This document shows, one piece after another, positions 19,066 to 35,564 of a stretch of 38,798 bases of DNA. Positions within the stretch are counted from its first letter, which is position 1. Every line of letters begins with the position of its first letter. Where the stretch lies: sequence record OR896850.1; one strand, given 5' to 3'. The notes below the pieces were generated by a model that searched no databases, was not told the origin of the DNA, and was given only the letters and a program-made list of their open reading frames with translations. Made by a program: the position numbers and the translations under genes. The stretch is from Klebsiella phage ViciousJeremy.

Positions 19066-19976
19066 GCCTAATCACATTGAAAGACTTCGCGGAGATGCGT
19101 GAAGGTAAGCCTATGGAGAAGGGATTGCTGGTCATGGATGGTGACTGGTTGGTATATCAGTCAATGGCTGCTGCCGAAGTTGAGACGGATTGGGGAGACG
19201 ACATTTGGACTCTTGAGTGTGACCACGCCAAGGCACGGAGCATTCTCGATTCTGCAATCGAATCATACCGAACCCGTAAGAAGGCTTGGAGTGACGCTAT
19301 GGTTGTTCTGGCGTATACCGACGATGTGAACTGGCGTAAGGTACTGGTTGATGAGACCTATAAGGAGAACCGTAAGGCGACCCGTAAGCCTGTGGGCTAC
19401 CGTGACTTCCTGTCGAAGCTGTGGGAGCGCGATGAGTTCATTCACATCAAAGAGGACATGCTGGAAGGTGATGACGTTATGGGCATCATTGGGTCTGGTC
19501 ACGAGGTCTTCGGCTTCAAGAAAGCCGTATTGGTCTCCTGTGACAAGGACTTCAAGACTATCCCGGACGTTGACTTCCTGTGGTGTACCACTGGTAACAT
19601 CTTGACGCAGACCAAAGAGACCGCTGATTGGTGGCATCTCTTCCAGACCATCAAGGGTGATATGACCGATGGCTACTCCGGGATTCCCGGCTGGGGCGAT
19701 ACGGCAGAAGGTTTCCTGAATGACCCGTTCATTGTGGAGCCTGTAGAGTCCGTGTTGAAGTCCGGTAAGAACAAGGGGCAGACAGTAACCAAGTGGGTGA
19801 AGCGTGCTCCTGATGCGACTGAGACGCTGTGGGACTGCATTAAATCCATTGGTGCCAAAGCTGGGATGACCGAGCAGGAAATCATCAAGCAAGGCCAGAT
19901 GGCTCGCATTCTTCGCTTCGAGGAATACAATTACATTGACAAGGAGATTTACTTATGGACGCCGCAAAGTACATAA
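19062..19976 (+). CDS. 6: Gene 6 5-prime to 3-prime exonuclease
   Basis: 304 aa; ...[17 protein letters not shown]...[24 protein letters not shown]... colinear with T7 gp6. Confidence 0.95.
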
Positions 19977-22729: not shown

Positions 22730-23662
22730 ATGGCTGAATCTAATGCAGACGTTTATGCGTCCTTCGGTGTGAACAACGCGGTAATGACCGGAAGCACACC
22801 TACTGAACACGAACAGAATATGCTGAGTCTCGATGTTGCTGCCCGTGATGGCGATGATGCAATCGTACTTAGCGAGGAACCGAGTTCTCATAACGATGAC
22901 CCTTATGCGGCTGGTGAAGACCCATTCGCTGAGGGCGAGGATGATGAGGGCCGTATTCAGGTTCGTATCAGTGAAGATGGTAGTGAAGCTGAGTTCGACA
23001 CTGGTAGCGATAACGCTGAGGTGGAGACCGAAGGTGAAGCCGCTGAGTTTGAGCCGCTGGGTGACACTCCAGAAGAACTGAGCCAAGTGACTGAACAATT
23101 AGGTCAGCACGAAGAAGGCTTTCAGGCGATGGTCGAGCAGGCCGTTGAGCGTGGACTGAGCGCAGAGTCTGTGACTCGCATCTACGAAGAGTACGAAGCC
23201 GATGGTATCTCTGAGAAATCCTACGCGGAACTCGAAGCTGCTGGCTATAGTCGTGCCTTTGTGGACTCCTACATCTCCGGTCAGGAAGCCCTTGTAGACC
23301 AGTACGTCAATCAGGTAGTTGCCTTTGCTGGTGGTAAGGAGCGCTTTAGCGCAATCCATACGCACCTTGAAGCGACAAACCCGGCTGCGGCTGAGTCCCT
23401 TGAGGCTGCCATGATGAACCGAGACTTGGCGACTGTCAAAGCAATTATCAATCTGGCTGGTGAGAGTTACACGAAGAAATTCGGTAAGCCCGCCAACCGT
23501 AGTGTTACCAAGCGTGCTACTCCGGTTAAACCTGTAGCTCGTCAGAAAGAGGGCTTTACGAATCAGGCTGAGATGATTAAAGCTATGAGTGACCCGCGTT
23601 ACCGTAGTGATGCTGCCTACCGTCAAATGGTAGAACAGAAGGTTATCGACTCCAGTTTCTAA
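22730..23662 (+). CDS. 9: Gene 9 capsid assembly (scaffolding) protein
   Basis: 310 aa, very acidic and Ala/Glu-rich; at the T7 gp9 position. Confidence 0.9.
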   Translation: MAESNADVYASFGVNNAVMTGSTPTEHEQNMLSLDVAARDGDDAIVLSEEPSSHNDDPYAAGEDPFAEGEDDEGRIQVRISEDGSEAEFDTGSDNAEVETEGEAAEFEPLGDTPEELSQVTEQLGQHEEGFQAMVEQAVERGLSAESVTRIYEEYEADGISEKSYAELEAAGYSRAFVDSYISGQEALVDQYVNQVVAFAGGKERFSAIHTHLEATNPAAAESLEAAMMNRDLATVKAIINLAGESYTKKFGKPANRSVTKRATPVKPVARQKEGFTNQAEMIKAMSDPRYRSDAAYRQMVEQKVIDSSF

Positions 23663-23683
23663 TTAACCCTCACTAAAGGGAGA
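23661..23683 (+). promoter_or_regulatory. T3-type class III promoter (phi10)
   Basis: AATTAACCCTCACTAAAGGGAGA perfect consensus; overlaps the gene 9 stop. Confidence 0.9.
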
Positions 23684-23818
23684 GACCATAGATGACTACA
23701 ATGGTTGAATCACCTGAGCACAGAACTTTGTGGTCACTCCCGTAGGTGAAACATTGAGAACCAACTCGATTCAAGTAGTAACCAAACTTTTCTTTAAATT
23801 AACATAAGGAGATTCAAC

Positions 23819-24862
23819 ATGGCTAACATTCAAGGCGGACAGCAAATTGGTACTAATCAGGGTAAGGGTCAGTCCGCAGCGGACAAATTGGCGCTGTTCC
23901 TGAAAGTGTTCGGCGGTGAAGTCCTGACTGCTTTCGCTCGCACCTCCGTGACCATGCCTCGTCACATGCTGCGCTCTATTGCTTCCGGTAAGTCCGCACA
24001 GTTCCCTGTGATTGGTCGCACCAAAGCTGCTTACCTGAAACCGGGTGAGAACCTCGATGACAAACGTAAGGATATCAAACACACCGAGAAGGTAATCCAC
24101 ATTGATGGCCTGCTGACTGCGGACGTGCTGATTTACGACATTGAGGACGCGATGAACCACTACGACGTTCGCGCTGAGTACACCGCACAGTTGGGTGAAT
24201 CTCTGGCGATGGCGGCTGACGGTGCTGTACTGGCTGAACTGGCTGGTCTGGTTAACCTGCCGGACGCCTCCAATGAGAACATCGAGGGTCTCGGTAAGCC
24301 TACCGTACTGACTCTGGTTAAGCCGACCACTGGCGACCTGACTGACCCGGTTGAGCTGGGTAAAGCGATTATCGCTCAGTTGACCGTTGCTCGTGCTGCT
24401 CTGACCAAGAACTACGTTCCGGCTGCTGACCGTACTTTCTACACCACTCCTGATAACTACTCCGCGATTCTGGCTGCTCTGATGCCGAACGCTGCAAACT
24501 ATCAGGCACTGATTGACCCTGAGCGCGGTACTATCCGTAACGTGATGGGCTTCGAAGTGGTTGAGGTTCCGCACCTGACTGCTGGTGGTGCTGGTGATGA
24601 CCGTGAGGACACTCCGGCTGGCCAGAAGCACGCTTTCCCGGCGACTTCCAGCACTACCGTTAAGGTTGCTCTGGATAACGTTGTGGGCCTGTTCCAGCAC
24701 CGCTCTGCGGTTGGTACGGTCAAGCTGAAAGACTTGGCTCTGGAGCGCGCTCGTCGTGCGAACTATCAGGCTGACCAGATTATCGCTAAATATGCGATGG
24801 GTCACGGCGGTCTGCGTCCAGAAGCTGCTGGCGCTATCGTTCTCCCAAAGGTGTCGGAGTAA
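23819..24862 (+). CDS. 10: Gene 10A major capsid protein
   Basis: 347 aa; AAGGAGA SD; highly expressed codon usage; colinear with T7 gp10A. Confidence 0.97.
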   Translation: MANIQGGQQIGTNQGKGQSAADKLALFLKVFGGEVLTAFARTSVTMPRHMLRSIASGKSAQFPVIGRTKAAYLKPGENLDDKRKDIKHTEKVIHIDGLLTADVLIYDIEDAMNHYDVRAEYTAQLGESLAMAADGAVLAELAGLVNLPDASNENIEGLGKPTVLTLVKPTTGDLTDPVELGKAIIAQLTVARAALTKNYVPAADRTFYTTPDNYSAILAALMPNAANYQALIDPERGTIRNVMGFEVVEVPHLTAGGAGDDREDTPAGQKHAFPATSSTTVKVALDNVVGLFQHRSAVGTVKLKDLALERARRANYQADQIIAKYAMGHGGLRPEAAGAIVLPKVSE

Positions 24863-25134
24863 TTCCCGACCCCACTGGAGTTACTCTTAGTCAGAAGACT
24901 ATGAGCTTAGACGTTGGGGCTTCTAAAGCCCTGACTTCTACGGTAACTCCGGCTGATGCAGTACAGACAGTGACCTTTACGTCTTCCAATGCGAAGATTG
25001 CCACGGTCGATGCCTCTGGTACTGTAACTGCTGTGGGCGCTGGCTCCGCTGATATCACTGCGACTACTGTGAATGGCCTGACGGCTGTCTGCAAGGTCAC
25101 TGTGAAAGCAGTAGAGCCTCCCGTAGAAGGCTAA
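23819..25134 (+). CDS. 10: Gene 10B minor capsid protein (10A residues 1-344 plus 94-aa -1 frame extension with Ig-like Big_2 domain)
   Basis: extension ...GVGVIPDPTGVTLSQKTMSLDVGASKALTSTVTPADAVQTVTFTSSNAKIATVDASGTVTAVGAGSADITATTVNGLTAVCKVTVKAVEPPVEG has the Big_2 signature; T7 and T3 both make 10B by a -1 frameshift. Confidence 0.55.
24844..24850 (+). other. -1 programmed ribosomal frameshift heptamer C CCA AAG, 10 nt before the 10A stop
   Basis: canonical X XXY YYZ slippery site in the 10A frame; the -1 frame is open from 24790 and continues to 25134. Confidence 0.55.
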
Positions 25135-25175
25135 GGTCTTTACCGGGGATTTACTTTCCTTCATTACTTTATGAA

Positions 25176-25214
25176 CCCCTTGGGTGCCCTCTGAGGGTAT
25201 CTGAGGGGTTTTTT
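25176..25214 (+). terminator. Tphi-like rho-independent terminator for phage RNAP
   Basis: CCCCTTGGGTGCCCTC...GAGGGTATCTGAGGGG long G.U-rich hairpin followed by TTTTTT; analogous to T7 Tphi (AACCCCTTGGGGCCTCTAAACGGGTCTTGAGGGGTTTTTTG) after gene 10. Confidence 0.8.
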
Positions 25215-25216
25215 GC

Positions 25217-25239
25217 TTTAAACCCTCACTAACAGGAGG
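25217..25239 (+). promoter_or_regulatory. T3-type promoter (phi11)
   Basis: TTTAAACCCTCACTAACAGGAGG. Confidence 0.65.
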
Positions 25240-25246
25240 TAACATC

Positions 25247-25837
25247 ATGCGCTCTTATGAGATGAACATTGAGACCGCAGAAGAGCTATCAGCCGTCAAC
25301 GACATTCTGGCTTCCATCGGTGAGCCACCAGTATCAACCCTTGAGGGTGATGCAAACGCTGATGTTGCAAACGCTCGACGTGTGCTCAACAAGATTAACC
25401 GACAGATTCAGTCACGAGGATGGACATTCAATATTGAGGAAGGTGTGACTCTTCTACCGGATGCGTTCTCTGGCATGATTCCATTTAGCTCTGACTACCT
25501 GTCCGTAATGGCAACCAGCGGTCAGACCCAATATATCAACCGTGGTGGCTATCTCTATGACCGCTCTGCGAAGACCGACAGATTCCCTTCTGGTGTTCAG
25601 GTCAACCTGATTCGTCTGAGAGAGTTCGACGAGATGCCAGAGTGCTTCCGAAACTACATCGTTACCAAGGCTTCCCGTCAGTTCAACAACCGCTTCTTCG
25701 GTGCGCCGGAGGTAGACGGAGTGTTGCAGGAAGAGGAACAGGAAGCGTGGCGTGCGTGCTTCGAGTACGAACTAGACTACGGCAACTACAACATGCTGGA
25801 TGGTGACGCATTCACCTCTGGTCTACTTAACCGCTAA
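25247..25837 (+). CDS. 11: Gene 11 tail tubular protein A (gatekeeper)
   Basis: 196 aa, same length as T7 gp11; position. Confidence 0.9.
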
Positions 25838-31601: not shown

Positions 31602-34600
31602 ATGAGCTACGATAAGAACAAACCTAGCGAGTTCGATGGGTTATTTCAAAAAGCGGCAGACAATCATGGGGTCTCCTATGACCTGCTTCGTAAATTAGCA
31701 TTCAACGAATCCAGCTTTAATCCAAAGGCCAAATCCCCAACTGGCCCGAAGGGTCTCATGCAGTTCACCAAAGGTACAGCCACTGCGCTTGGCCTCAAGG
31801 TTACTGACGATGATGACGATGACCGTTACAACCCTGAGTTGGCTGTGGATGCAGCCGCTCGCCACCTGAGTGACCTCATTCGGAAGTACGATGGGGATGA
31901 ACTCAAAGCTGCCTTGGCGTATAATCAGGGCGAGGGGCGCAACGGTGCTCCACAGATACAGGCTTATGACAAAGGCGATTGGGCTTCAATCTCTGAGGAA
32001 GGTCGTAACTATATGCGTAACCTGATGGACGTAGCTAACAGTCCTCGCAAGGGGGACTTGGAGGCGTTCGGCGGCATCACCCCAAAGGCTAAGGGCATTC
32101 CATCTGGGGATGCATTTGCTGGAATCGGGAAGAAGCAGACGGTAGGCACTGACCTGCCGGAGTCAACTGGATTCAAAGTGGAGGGTAAGGAGCAGAAAGC
32201 ACCTAACGTGCCGTATGCTAAGGACTTTTGGGAAAAGACTGGAACAACACTGGACGAGTTTAATTCTCGTTCAACCTTCTTCGGAATCGGAGATGCCACA
32301 AGTGCAGAACTTCACAACTCTGTATTGGGTGTGGCTTTTCGTGCCGCTCGTAGTGATGACGGTTTTGATTTATTCAAGGACACCATTACGCCGACTCGCT
32401 GGAACAGCCATACGTGGACTCCAGAAGAGTTAGAGCGTATCCGTAAGGAAGTGAAGAACCCATCGTACATCAACGTAGTCACTGGAGGCTCTCCTGAGAA
32501 TCTGGACGCCCTCATTAAGATGGCGAATGACAACTACGAGATGGACGCGCGGTCTGCCGATGCTGGTGTTGGTGCCAAACTTACTGCTAGCATCGTCGGT
32601 GCTGGTGTAGACCCGCTGAGTTACGTGCCGCTAGTAGGCGTAGCCGGGAAGGGTCTCAAGGTGGTCAACAAGGCTTTCATTGTTGGTACTCAAAGTGCTG
32701 GCCTCGCTGTTGCCTCTGAGGGTATCCGTACATCAATCGCTGGTGGAGAAGCCCACTATGCTGATGCTGCTTTAGGCGGTCTGATGTTCGGTGCCGGGAT
32801 GAGTGCAATCAGTGACGCTATCGCCGCTGGTATTCGCCGTTCCCGTGGGACTGAGGTTGTTAATGACTTCGCTCCTATGGCACACCGCTTGGAAGCCCGT
32901 GAGACCGCTCTGAACACTGGTGGTGAAGACCTGACCCGTATGCCTAGCGAGAACCGTGTGTTCGACCGTGAGCACGCTGGCGTTGAGTATTCACCTCTGG
33001 AGACCGAGCCGGGTGCCGTTGTGTTGCCTCAAGGTCAAATCCTTAGCGACACCAACCCACTGAACCCTCAGACTCTTAGCGAGTTCGAGGCGGTCAACCC
33101 TGAGCGTGCCTCTCGTGGTATCTCTTTGGGCGGTTTCACTGAGATTGGCTTGAAGACTCTCCGCTCTGAGAACCCGACTGTTCGCTCCATTGCGAGTGAC
33201 CTTGTGCGTTCTCCAACAGGGATGGAATCAGGCTCTAATGGTAAGTTCGGTGCGACAGCTTCTGACATTAAGGAGCGACTCCACGCGAACAATCAGCGCA
33301 CCTACAATCAGCTTTATGATGCTGTGCGTACTGCAATGAAAGACCCTGAGTTCTCCACAGGTGGGGCCACAATGAGCCGTAAGGAAATCCGACAGGAAAT
33401 CTACAAGCGTGCAGCCTTGGCGATTGAGCGACCTGAGCTTCAAGCAAACCTGACAAAGGGTGAGCGGAACGTGATGAACATCCTTAAGCAGCACTTTGAC
33501 CTCAAACGTGAAATCATGGAGAACCCGTCAATCTTCGGCAACACCAAGGCGGTCAGTATCTTCCCCGGCTCACGCCACAAGGGAACCTACGTGCCAAACG
33601 TGTACGACCGCGCTATCAAGATTGAGATGGTTAAACGTTACGGTAATGATGGCTTGCAGCGAGCAATCGCGGAGTCATGGTTGACGTCTTATCGTGCTCG
33701 TCCAGAAGTCAAGGCGAGGGTCGATGAGTACCTGATGGAACTTAACGGTCTCAAATCCGTGCAGGAAGTTACGCCTGAGATGGTGCAGAAGCACGCGATG
33801 GATAAGGCGTATGGTATTTCACACACTGACCAGTTCTCTGCCTCCTCTGTCATTGAGGATAACATTGAGGGTCTGGTGGGTATCGAGAACAACAACTTCT
33901 TGGAAGCCCGTAACATGTTCGACAGCGACATGGCGGTGACTCTCCCTGATGGTAACACGTTCTCTGTGAATGACCTGCGTACCTATGACATGGCTGAAAT
34001 TCTGCCTGCATACGACCGAAGAGTAGATGGTGATGTTGCAATCATGGGCGGTTCCGGTAAGACTACCAAAGACCTGAAAGATGAAATCATGGCGCTGGAT
34101 AAGCAGGCTGAGGGTAACGGCACACTGAAAGGTGAAGTGGAAGCCCTCAAGGACACCGTGAAGATTCTGACTGGTCGTGCCCGTAGGAACCCGGAAGGCG
34201 CTTGGGGTACAGCCCTGCGCTCCGTAAATGACCTCACGTTCTTTGCTAAGAACGCCTATATGGGCGCACAGAACGTTACTGAAATCGCTGGTATGTTGGC
34301 GAAAGGTAACGTCTCTGCGATAACTCATGGCATCCCTGTGATTAACGATTGGGTCAACCGTGGTAAACCGCTTCGTGCCTCTGAGATTAAGGAGATACAC
34401 GGGATGGTGTTCGGTAAGGAACTAGACCAACTAATCCGTCCGGGACGTGAAGACCACGTGCGCCGACTCCGGGAGTCTACGGACACCAGCGCTGCGGTTG
34501 CCAATGTGGTCGGCACGATTCGTTTCGGCACTCAAGAGTTGGCTGCACGCTCTCCTTGGACAATGCTCCTAAACGGAACATCAAACTACATTCTTGATGC

Positions 34601-35564
34601 TGCCCGTCAGGGTGTGCTTGGGGATGTGGCTGGAGCGGCCCTTGCTGGGAAAGCCTCTAAGTTCGGTAAGGCAAACTACCTTAAGTCTGCCTCTATCAGC
34701 CCTGAGCAGTGGAATGGAATCAAGCAGTTGTTCAGAGACCATGCGACTCGTGGAGAAGACGGTAAGTTCACCATTCGTGACAAACAGGCTTTCGCTAACG
34801 ACCCTCGTTCGATGGACTTGTGGCGACTGGCTGACAAGGTGGCGGATGAGACTATACTGCGCCCTCACAAGGTTTCCTCACAGGACTCCAAAGCGTTCGG
34901 TGCAGGGGTGAAGATGGTGATGCAGTTTAAGAACTTCGTCATCAAATCCCTTAACTCCCGGTTCGTCCGTAGCTTCTACGAGGCAACTAAGAACAACCGT
35001 GCGTTAGACCAAGCGTTGACTCATATCATCTCTTTGGGTCTAGCTGGTGGCTACTACGTTGCGCAGGCGCACCTTAAGGCTGCAAGCCTACAGGAGCACA
35101 AACGTAAGGAGTACCTTAAGAACGCACTTGACCCTAAGATGATTGCTCATGCGTCAATCTCTCGTAGTTCACACTTAGGCTCACCATTGAGTATCTACGA
35201 CATGTTCGCTGGGATGGTTGGTAGCGATACCTATAAGTACACCCGCTCTACTGTACTCCCTAAAGAGTCCGAGAAGCGAGACCCTAACAAGGCAGTGACA
35301 GGCAGACAGGTGGCTTCAACTATCGCAGGTGCAATTGGTGAGCAGGTTCCGGGTTTAGGTTTTGTTGGCTCTGTGGGTGCAACAACTATTAACGCCGCTT
35401 CCCTGCTGTCTTCTCCAAACAAGGCTACCGCTCTGGAGTTTCGTACAGGACTCTTCAACACCTCTCGTGAGTTGATTCCTAATGACCCGCTATCGCAGCA
35501 ACTCATTATGAAAATCTACGAGGCCAACGGTATCCGCATAAAGGAGACGCCGAAGAAACAATAA
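31602..35564 (+). CDS. 16: Gene 16 internal virion protein D with N-terminal lytic transglycosylase domain
   Basis: 1320 aa (T7: 1318); N-terminal ...LRKLAFNESSFNPKAKSPTGPKGLMQFTKGTA is an SLT motif with the catalytic Glu. Confidence 0.95.
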   Translation: MSYDKNKPSEFDGLFQKAADNHGVSYDLLRKLAFNESSFNPKAKSPTGPKGLMQFTKGTATALGLKVTDDDDDDRYNPELAVDAAARHLSDLIRKYDGDELKAALAYNQGEGRNGAPQIQAYDKGDWASISEEGRNYMRNLMDVANSPRKGDLEAFGGITPKAKGIPSGDAFAGIGKKQTVGTDLPESTGFKVEGKEQKAPNVPYAKDFWEKTGTTLDEFNSRSTFFGIGDATSAELHNSVLGVAFRAARSDDGFDLFKDTITPTRWNSHTWTPEELERIRKEVKNPSYINVVTGGSPENLDALIKMANDNYEMDARSADAGVGAKLTASIVGAGVDPLSYVPLVGVAGKGLKVVNKAFIVGTQSAGLAVASEGIRTSIAGGEAHYADAALGGLMFGAGMSAISDAIAAGIRRSRGTEVVNDFAPMAHRLEARETALNTGGEDLTRMPSENRVFDREHAGVEYSPLETEPGAVVLPQGQILSDTNPLNPQTLSEFEAVNPERASRGISLGGFTEIGLKTLRSENPTVRSIASDLVRSPTGMESGSNGKFGATASDIKERLHANNQRTYNQLYDAVRTAMKDPEFSTGGATMSRKEIRQEIYKRAALAIERPELQANLTKGERNVMNILKQHFDLKREIMENPSIFGNTKAVSIFPGSRHKGTYVPNVYDRAIKIEMVKRYGNDGLQRAIAESWLTSYRARPEVKARVDEYLMELNGLKSVQEVTPEMVQKHAMDKAYGISHTDQFSASSVIEDNIEGLVGIENNNFLEARNMFDSDMAVTLPDGNTFSVNDLRTYDMAEILPAYDRRVDGDVAIMGGSGKTTKDLKDEIMALDKQAEGNGTLKGEVEALKDTVKILTGRARRNPEGAWGTALRSVNDLTFFAKNAYMGAQNVTEIAGMLAKGNVSAITHGIPVINDWVNRGKPLRASEIKEIHGMVFGKELDQLIRPGREDHVRRLRESTDTSAAVANVVGTIRFGTQELAARSPWTMLLNGTSNYILDAARQGVLGDVAGAALAGKASKFGKANYLKSASISPEQWNGIKQLFRDHATRGEDGKFTIRDKQAFANDPRSMDLWRLADKVADETILRPHKVSSQDSKAFGAGVKMVMQFKNFVIKSLNSRFVRSFYEATKNNRALDQALTHIISLGLAGGYYVAQAHLKAASLQEHKRKEYLKNALDPKMIAHASISRSSHLGSPLSIYDMFAGMVGSDTYKYTRSTVLPKESEKRDPNKAVTGRQVASTIAGAIGEQVPGLGFVGSVGATTINAASLLSSPNKATALEFRTGLFNTSRELIPNDPLSQQLIMKIYEANGIRIKETPKKQ

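Follow-up and report, generated by a model that had tools for sequence, protein, structure and literature searches.

The gene 10 locus of Klebsiella phage ViciousJeremy (sequence record OR896850.1) raises the question of how a long reading frame that overlaps the end of the major capsid gene in the -1 phase, and continues well beyond its stop codon, is expressed, and what its product would add to the capsid. The window, that is, the whole stretch of DNA that was analysed, comprises 38,798 nucleotides (nt) of one strand, and all the features discussed here lie on its + strand. The upstream frame, gene 10A (23819-24862), was taken from the list of open reading frames (ORFs) and encodes a protein of 347 residues and 36.9 kDa. 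The answer considered very probable is that the two frames are joined by the programmed -1 ribosomal frameshift of gene 10A/10B known from T3-like phages (Teetrevirus), yielding a larger capsid protein, 10B, that bears an immunoglobulin (Ig)-like domain of the Big_2 family.

The nature of the upstream frame is clear from its matches. Pfam Gp10A-like (PF21703) is found in the fused product with an E value of 9.5e-111, and in a PDB search solved T7-type capsid proteins match the N-terminal 342 residues with E values of 4e-180 and 1e-171, which identifies 10A as a major capsid protein of the T7 group. Its C-terminus reads ...GAIVLPKVSE and its stop codon, a TAA, occupies 24860-24862. The -1 frame opens at 24790, just behind another TAA (24787-24789), and closes with the stop codon at 25132-25134; over 24790-24862 both the zero frame and the -1 frame are open. 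Within this overlap zone lies the heptamer C_CCA_AAG (24844-24850), the putative point at which tRNA-Pro and tRNA-Lys slip in tandem into the -1 frame. The zero-frame codons, in the phase set by the ATG at 23819, are CTC CCA AAG, placing the heptamer in the canonical X_XXY_YYZ register, and nine nucleotides (GTG TCG GAG) separate it from the 10A stop. A sequence-only reading of this DNA had placed the end of the 10A frame at 24862, the open -1 frame at 24790-25134 and the slippery heptamer at 24844-24850, and the ORF reading bears out these positions together with the register.

Heptamers of this kind are scarce in the window. In-frame X_XXY_YYZ motifs with Y being A or T occur only nine times in the 38 long ORFs of the + strand (11,432 codons), and the one at 24844 is alone in lying at the end of a gene with a long -1 ORF behind it; one other apparent gene-end case can be set aside, since its ORF is spurious and lies out of frame within the ORF at 31602-35564. 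An open -1 stretch of at least 94 codons is by itself not rare, being found at 3.2% of codon positions, and the weight of the case therefore rests on the combination of heptamer, domain match and conservation in relatives. A second in-frame CCCAAAG is present at 32081-32087, inside the same 31602-35564 ORF; there the -1 frame closes after one codon, so that the only effect of slippage would be a truncated protein.

The heptamer at 24844 recurs unchanged in T3 (GenBank records X17255 and AJ318471 were compared) and in phage phiYeO3-12, and the records of both phages annotate a -1 frameshift at this place. The remark 'frameshift at 19084' in the T3 record X17255 corresponds to window position 24847, which lies inside the heptamer, and the phiYeO3-12 record carries the words 'ribosome slippage ... 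-1 frameshift' at the equivalent point. The window thus holds, in register and a few codons before the 10A stop, a site homologous to the annotated T3 site; this identity of the site and the anatomy of the locus are direct observations. According to a review, C_CCA_AAG is among the highly shift-prone heptamers in Escherichia coli, and its A_AAG core slips, AAA being the codon with which the single tRNA-Lys pairs better.

A -1 event anywhere inside 24790-24862 would give a 10B-like protein, and it may be asked whether the change of frame could take place elsewhere, either because the phage RNA polymerase slips during transcription or because ribosomes slip at another point of the overlap, where a G_GGU tetramer is found at about 24798-24801. 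Homopolymers at the slip site do not exceed three bases (CCC or AAA), and the runs that support polymerase slippage are far longer than that. Moreover, C_CCA_AAG is the sole canonical heptamer within the overlap, the heptamer or its A_AAG core is the element conserved across lineages, and the T3 annotation puts the shift inside the heptamer; a change of frame at another point or by another machinery is consequently most improbable. Two further routes into the downstream sequence were considered and rejected: past the TAA the zero frame continues for only 13 codons, so stop-codon readthrough would not encode the domain, and the +1 frame is open for just nine codons beyond the stop.

Under the frameshift reading, the gene 10 mRNA would run from promoter phi10 to terminator Tphi, and most ribosomes would translate 23819-24862 into the 347-residue 10A. 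A minority would slip back by one base, the tRNA-Pro and tRNA-Lys placed on C_CCA_AAG re-pairing on CCC_AAA, and would go on to read GGU GUC GGA... as far as the stop codon at 25132-25134. We infer from the sequence that such slippage does take place in this phage, with an efficiency that would leave 10B the minor product and perhaps with the help of a hairpin described below. The 10B-specific coding sequence in the -1 frame (24850-25134) has 94 codons and a stop. A shift at the heptamer gives ...VLPK-GVGVIPDPTG..., with the predicted junction sequence ...GAIVLPKGVGVIPDPTGVTLSQK and the tryptic junction ...GAIVLPK/GVGVIPDPTGVTLSQK, and the computed product has 438 residues and 45.6 kDa, in agreement with the earlier proposal that the shift would append 94 residues to make a protein of roughly 438. 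Such a 10B would comprise the first 344 residues of 10A, then a linker of 17 residues and a single Big_2 Ig-like domain, and its co-assembly with 10A would leave some capsid subunits carrying an Ig-like domain outside the shell.

The identity of the domain is likewise a matter of observation. Big_2 (PF02368) was located by Pfam and PHROG matches at 24874-25095, that is, at extension residues 9-82, and the fused product carries this match together with that to Gp10A-like. Searched alone, the 94-residue extension matches the Pfam family with an E value of 7.8e-16 and 58.2 bits, well above the gathering cut-off of 22.8 bits, and the match spans nearly the full model (profile positions 3-78 of 79). 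The Pfam search that had been suggested as a check thereby agrees with the claim that the extension carries a Big_2 domain. The best PHROG of the extension is number 215, 'structural protein with Ig domain' (E 1.2e-26), and in the PDB it matches Big_2-bearing tail-fibre, surface and carbohydrate-binding proteins with E values from 6e-9 to 4e-6.

Whether translation of the -1 frame begins at the slip site or at a start codon of its own can be judged from the linker GVGVIPDPTGVTLSQKT (24850-24900), whose 17 codons lie upstream of any start codon in the extension and are conserved in comparison with members of the genus Pifdecavirus. The linkers of the window and of Pifdecavirus differ at two first, no second and eleven third codon positions, with proportions of nonsynonymous (pN) and synonymous (pS) differences of 0.066 and 0.81. 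A 3-nt insertion or deletion between the two linkers preserves the frame, and so does a 15-nt deletion in a metagenomic locus (L015). Since the differences cluster at third codon positions and the insertions and deletions keep the frame, an untranslated leader is ruled against. Over the whole extension, the comparison of the window with the T3 allele gives 22, 23 and 58 differences at the first, second and third codon positions (pN 0.28, pS 0.67). The -1 frame therefore not only overlaps the end of 10A and passes its stop, it is also coding-constrained, and these comparisons show purifying selection acting on it from the slip site onward.

The same data bear on the possibility that the Big_2 domain is made as a separate protein. 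An ATG-initiated ORF of 77 residues (24901-25134) does exist, and it is as a separate coding sequence that most GenBank records of this allele annotate the domain. Its ATG lacks a usable Shine-Dalgarno sequence: the anti-Shine-Dalgarno duplex at 24901 reaches -1.0 kcal/mol, as against -7.3 to -12.0 kcal/mol for the neighbouring genes 8, 9, 10, 11 and 12, and 87% of the 765 ATG triplets of the + strand of the window score as well as or better than this one. The strong same-frame purifying selection on the 17 codons before the ATG, and the survival of the frame relation to 10A through the 3-nt and 15-nt changes, also speak against initiation at this position, and a free Ig domain of 8 kDa would have no evident route into the capsid. 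An independent 77-residue product is thus very unlikely; because of the constraint on the linker, the frame-keeping insertions and deletions and the poor ATG context, the -1 frame appears to be translated from the slip site. The proposal that 10B arises by -1 frameshifting accordingly has the backing of linker constraint in relatives and of identity with the annotated T3 site.

A stimulatory RNA element may also be present. When the RNA that follows the slip site is folded by itself, its minimum-energy structure is a hairpin at 24856-24887 with an 11-bp stem (arms 24856-24866 and 24877-24887), a 10-nt loop and a 5-nt spacer after the heptamer, at -14 kcal/mol; the 10A stop codon is held in its 5' arm. 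In Pifdecavirus, too, a stem starts at a distance of 5 nt from the slip site, and the outer five stem pairs are codon-aligned between Pifdecavirus and the window, with one compensatory exchange of A-U for C-G. An Rfam scan of 24600-25300 gave no family match, its one hit being at chance level (E 0.95) and outside the site. Covariation sampling with a degenerate DNA pattern of the linker across IMG/VR returned nine loci, nearly all already in the set, and with so few additional loci the hairpin stays suggestive; it is a plausible candidate for a frameshift stimulator. Published statements on RNA structure in such phages differ, since for phage AP5 it is reported that no pseudoknot was found, and for phiIBB-PF7A one was predicted.

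Several observations weigh against the frameshift reading or parts of it. The hairpin folds only modestly better than shuffled sequences (z = -2.59), with 4 of 200 shuffles folding as well; in T3 it is reduced to 8 bp by the loss of three outer pairs, and in L015 it has lost its 5' arm. The AlphaFold2 model of the extension, computed from the single sequence, is all-beta with six strands, and its mean predicted local distance difference test score (pLDDT) of 50.6 and predicted template modelling score (pTM) of 0.38 make it too poor for a fold search, so that the Ig fold rests on the sequence profile match. Two capsid species, 10A and a larger 10B, are documented for T3 and T7; for the present phage and its allele, their presence in infected cells and virions is a prediction from the sequence. 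The relatives SH1 and AP5 lack the extension or carry a truncated one, from which it follows that the extension is dispensable, and the authors of the related Pseudomonas phage phiIBB-PF7A state that proteomics gave them no evidence of the shifted product that had been predicted. The viability of SH1 and AP5 and the phiIBB-PF7A proteome could also suit a -1 ORF that is an unexpressed, decaying relic, or one that results from a sequencing or assembly error in a former in-frame fusion. A relic would have gathered stops and frame-breaking insertions or deletions, yet the domain is under purifying selection and has no internal stops despite saturated synonymous divergence. The same -1 arrangement, moreover, is found in 41 records of this allele, in 16 of the T3 allele and in Pifdecavirus behind a different slip site (A_AAG). 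Decay or error can hence be given very little credence, and programmed frameshifting remains by far the better account of the locus.

A promoter for the phage RNA polymerase, phi10, lies at 23662-23683 as an exact match to the T3 consensus ATTAACCCTCACTAAAGGGAGA, in the position where promoter phi10 is annotated in phiYeO3-12, and would drive the gene 10 mRNA. The Shine-Dalgarno sequence of gene 10, read as AAGGAG at 23806-23811, forms an anti-Shine-Dalgarno duplex of -9.3 kcal/mol. Terminator Tphi (25173-25211), an 18-bp stem followed by a T run, has annotated counterparts in T3 and phiYeO3-12 and would end the mRNA; given the positions of phi10 and Tphi, gene 10 and the extension belong to one late transcript. 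In and around gene 10 the window shows 97-99% identity to many Teetrevirus (T3-like) phages, whose hosts are Klebsiella, Yersinia, Shigella, Enterobacter, Pantoea, Serratia, Citrobacter, Erwinia and Salmonella, and by its sequence the window is a Teetrevirus. Across the window, 12 T3-type promoters with 0-3 mismatches to the same consensus were found on the + strand between 1846 and 35582, where none would be expected by chance, which confirms the window as a nearly complete T3-like genome.

Against this uniform background the domain stands out as a mosaic segment. In an identity profile of 30-nt blocks, the DNA of the window is 97-100% identical to phiYeO3-12 up to 24899, about 50% identical over 24900-25180, which covers the domain cassette and the 3' untranslated region, and 97-100% identical again from the terminator onward. 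The extension of the window is 64% identical to that of T3 overall and about 56% over the domain, and its domain is 57-64% identical to those of Pifdecavirus, the T3 allele thus being no closer. Judged from these identities, the Big_2 segment is a clean cassette replacement and an allele different from that of T3. In the phage collection, this allele (at least 90% identity) was found in 41 records, among them those of phiYe-F10, whose extension is identical, Citrobacter phage SH2 and Enterobacter phage KNP3, and the T3 allele in 16; neither has an obvious host association. It is possible, though rather doubtful, that Big_2 is an exchangeable cassette among T7-like genera and hosts, which would suggest diversifying selection for surface ligands, and at the same time that the stop-codon hairpin is an undescribed conserved stimulator of lysyl-type sites.

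The annotation of this allele is uneven. Klebsiella phage Patroon (MK608335) and 40 other records of the allele have gene 10 DNA 97-99% identical to that of the window, and there is essentially no biological difference between these phages and the present one. The extension of Patroon is one residue off that of the window and is annotated as a joined 'Frame shift product'; among the records inspected, Patroon is the only one to join the extension to 10A. Most of the others annotate a separate small ORF (e.g., OR896841, NC_047755, MW600722 and KT008108) under inconsistent names, which include 'major tail protein', 'hypothetical protein', 'structural protein with Ig domain' and a 54-residue 'minor capsid protein 10B'. 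The practical value of the comparative evidence is that it supports re-annotation of such mis-called small ORFs, even those called 'major tail protein', as joined 10B.

The sampling of 80 T7-like viral contigs, retrieved with the 10A C-terminus, showed that nearly all of this group have an open -1 frame behind the capsid gene, a few contigs having no extension at all. Big_2 extensions stand behind C_CCA_AAG or A_AAG, and the short basic tail of T7 type, ...LTPQQKAARTRAANKA..., stands mostly behind G_GUU_UUC. A third type of extension of about 90 residues (...SVNTFSAR..YEVQTVAI..FKLVVTN), assigned to PHROG 7473 of unknown function and giving no sequence match in Pfam or the PDB, is also found behind G_GUU_UUC; it is carried by the IMG/VR contigs L021, L024, L025, L044, L047 and L054-L088, and a related variant by L022. 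Contig L013 (IMGVR_UViG_2706796511_000001) has a T3-like capsid gene with the lysyl site G_CCA_AAG and nevertheless a basic extension of T7 type (...LTPQQKAAITRARNKALKSQ), a combination indicating that slip-site type and extension type assort independently. In Pseudomonas phage vB_PpuP-Torve (L006, PP496433; 1465-2913) the -1 frame stays open for 471 codons after the capsid gene and encodes Big_2, a GDSL/SGNH-type acylhydrolase domain (Pfam Lipase_GDSL_2, E 2.4e-9) and a further C-terminal region, which the record annotates as a separate coding sequence; were the same A_AAG frameshift to yield this product, an enzyme would be displayed on the capsid.

Capsid display in T7 and K1F relies on C-terminal fusions to frameshift-derived 10B, and on this ground the Big_2 domain may soundly be expected to be displayed outside the capsid on a fraction of the subunits. 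What the domain does there can be approached by analogy with Hoc of phage T4, which suggests that the extension might confer weak adherence to glycans or mucus. A 2026 preprint on Peru-2 ascribes to the T3 domain an interaction with mucin, with reference to earlier work (Fraser et al. 2006; Condreay et al. 1989; Barr et al. 2013), and notes that enhanced adsorption has not been demonstrated for T3. The replacement of domains as cassettes, together with the several types of extension that stand behind one conserved frameshift, would make T7-like capsids a natural display platform, a background that may be useful for phage engineering and for the question of what capsid Ig-like domains bind.

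As a discovery the locus carries little weight, since the T3-type 10B mechanism, its site and the Ig-like nature of its extension are already known from the literature and GenBank, and the joined product is already annotated in Patroon; what value remains lies only in the exchanged cassette, the candidate hairpin and an annotation error that is widespread. Gene 10A/10B of T3 was reportedly the subject of work by Condreay, Wright and Molineux in 1989 (J Mol Biol 207:555), and Ig-like domains on phage structural proteins are said to have been treated by Fraser et al. in 2006 (J Mol Biol 359:496). The likeness to T3 is close: its 10A also has 347 residues and the same C-terminus, the shift is of -1 type, the linker GVGVIPDPTGVTLSQKTM is identical in T3, phiYeO3-12 and the window, and the T3 extension is likewise a single Big_2 domain (Pfam, E 4.2e-10), with 89 residues where the window has 94. 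A 2016 review states that frameshifting gives the T3 major coat protein an Ig-like extension and that the T7 extension is not Ig-like, and adds that Ig-like additions of the kind described by Fraser are often produced by frameshifting. In the Kvp1 paper, T3 and phiYeO3-12 are said to shift at lysyl residues and are contrasted with phages that shift at polyU.

The capsid protein of T7 itself is homologous, and in T7 too a -1 frameshift, placed a few codons upstream of the 10A stop, gives a minor capsid species with a C-terminal extension; this frameshift is reported to occur in about 10% of translations. T7-type phages slip at G_GUU_UUC, with a Phe codon, in place of the C_CCA_AAG of the window, and their basic extensions have 41-53 residues with no Pfam match, which, together with the review in the case of T7, agrees with the sequence-only reading that the T7 extension is shorter and not Ig-like. 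Directly behind the capsid gene, the Pifdecavirus phages of Pseudomonas (phiIBB-PF7A, UNO-SLW1, PFP1 and Torve) encode in the -1 frame a homologous linker, GVSVPDPTGVTLSQKTM, and a Big_2 domain, and their slip site is reduced to the A_AAG tetramer (GAA_AAG or GCA_AAG). T4 Hoc also places Ig-like domains on the capsid surface, is dispensable for growth and has been proposed to adhere weakly to glycans in the 'bacteriophage adherence to mucus' model; Hoc, however, is a decoration protein in its own right, has several Ig-like domains and binds to assembled capsomers, whereas in the window a single Big_2 domain would be covalently fused, through frameshifting, to a subset of the capsid protein itself.

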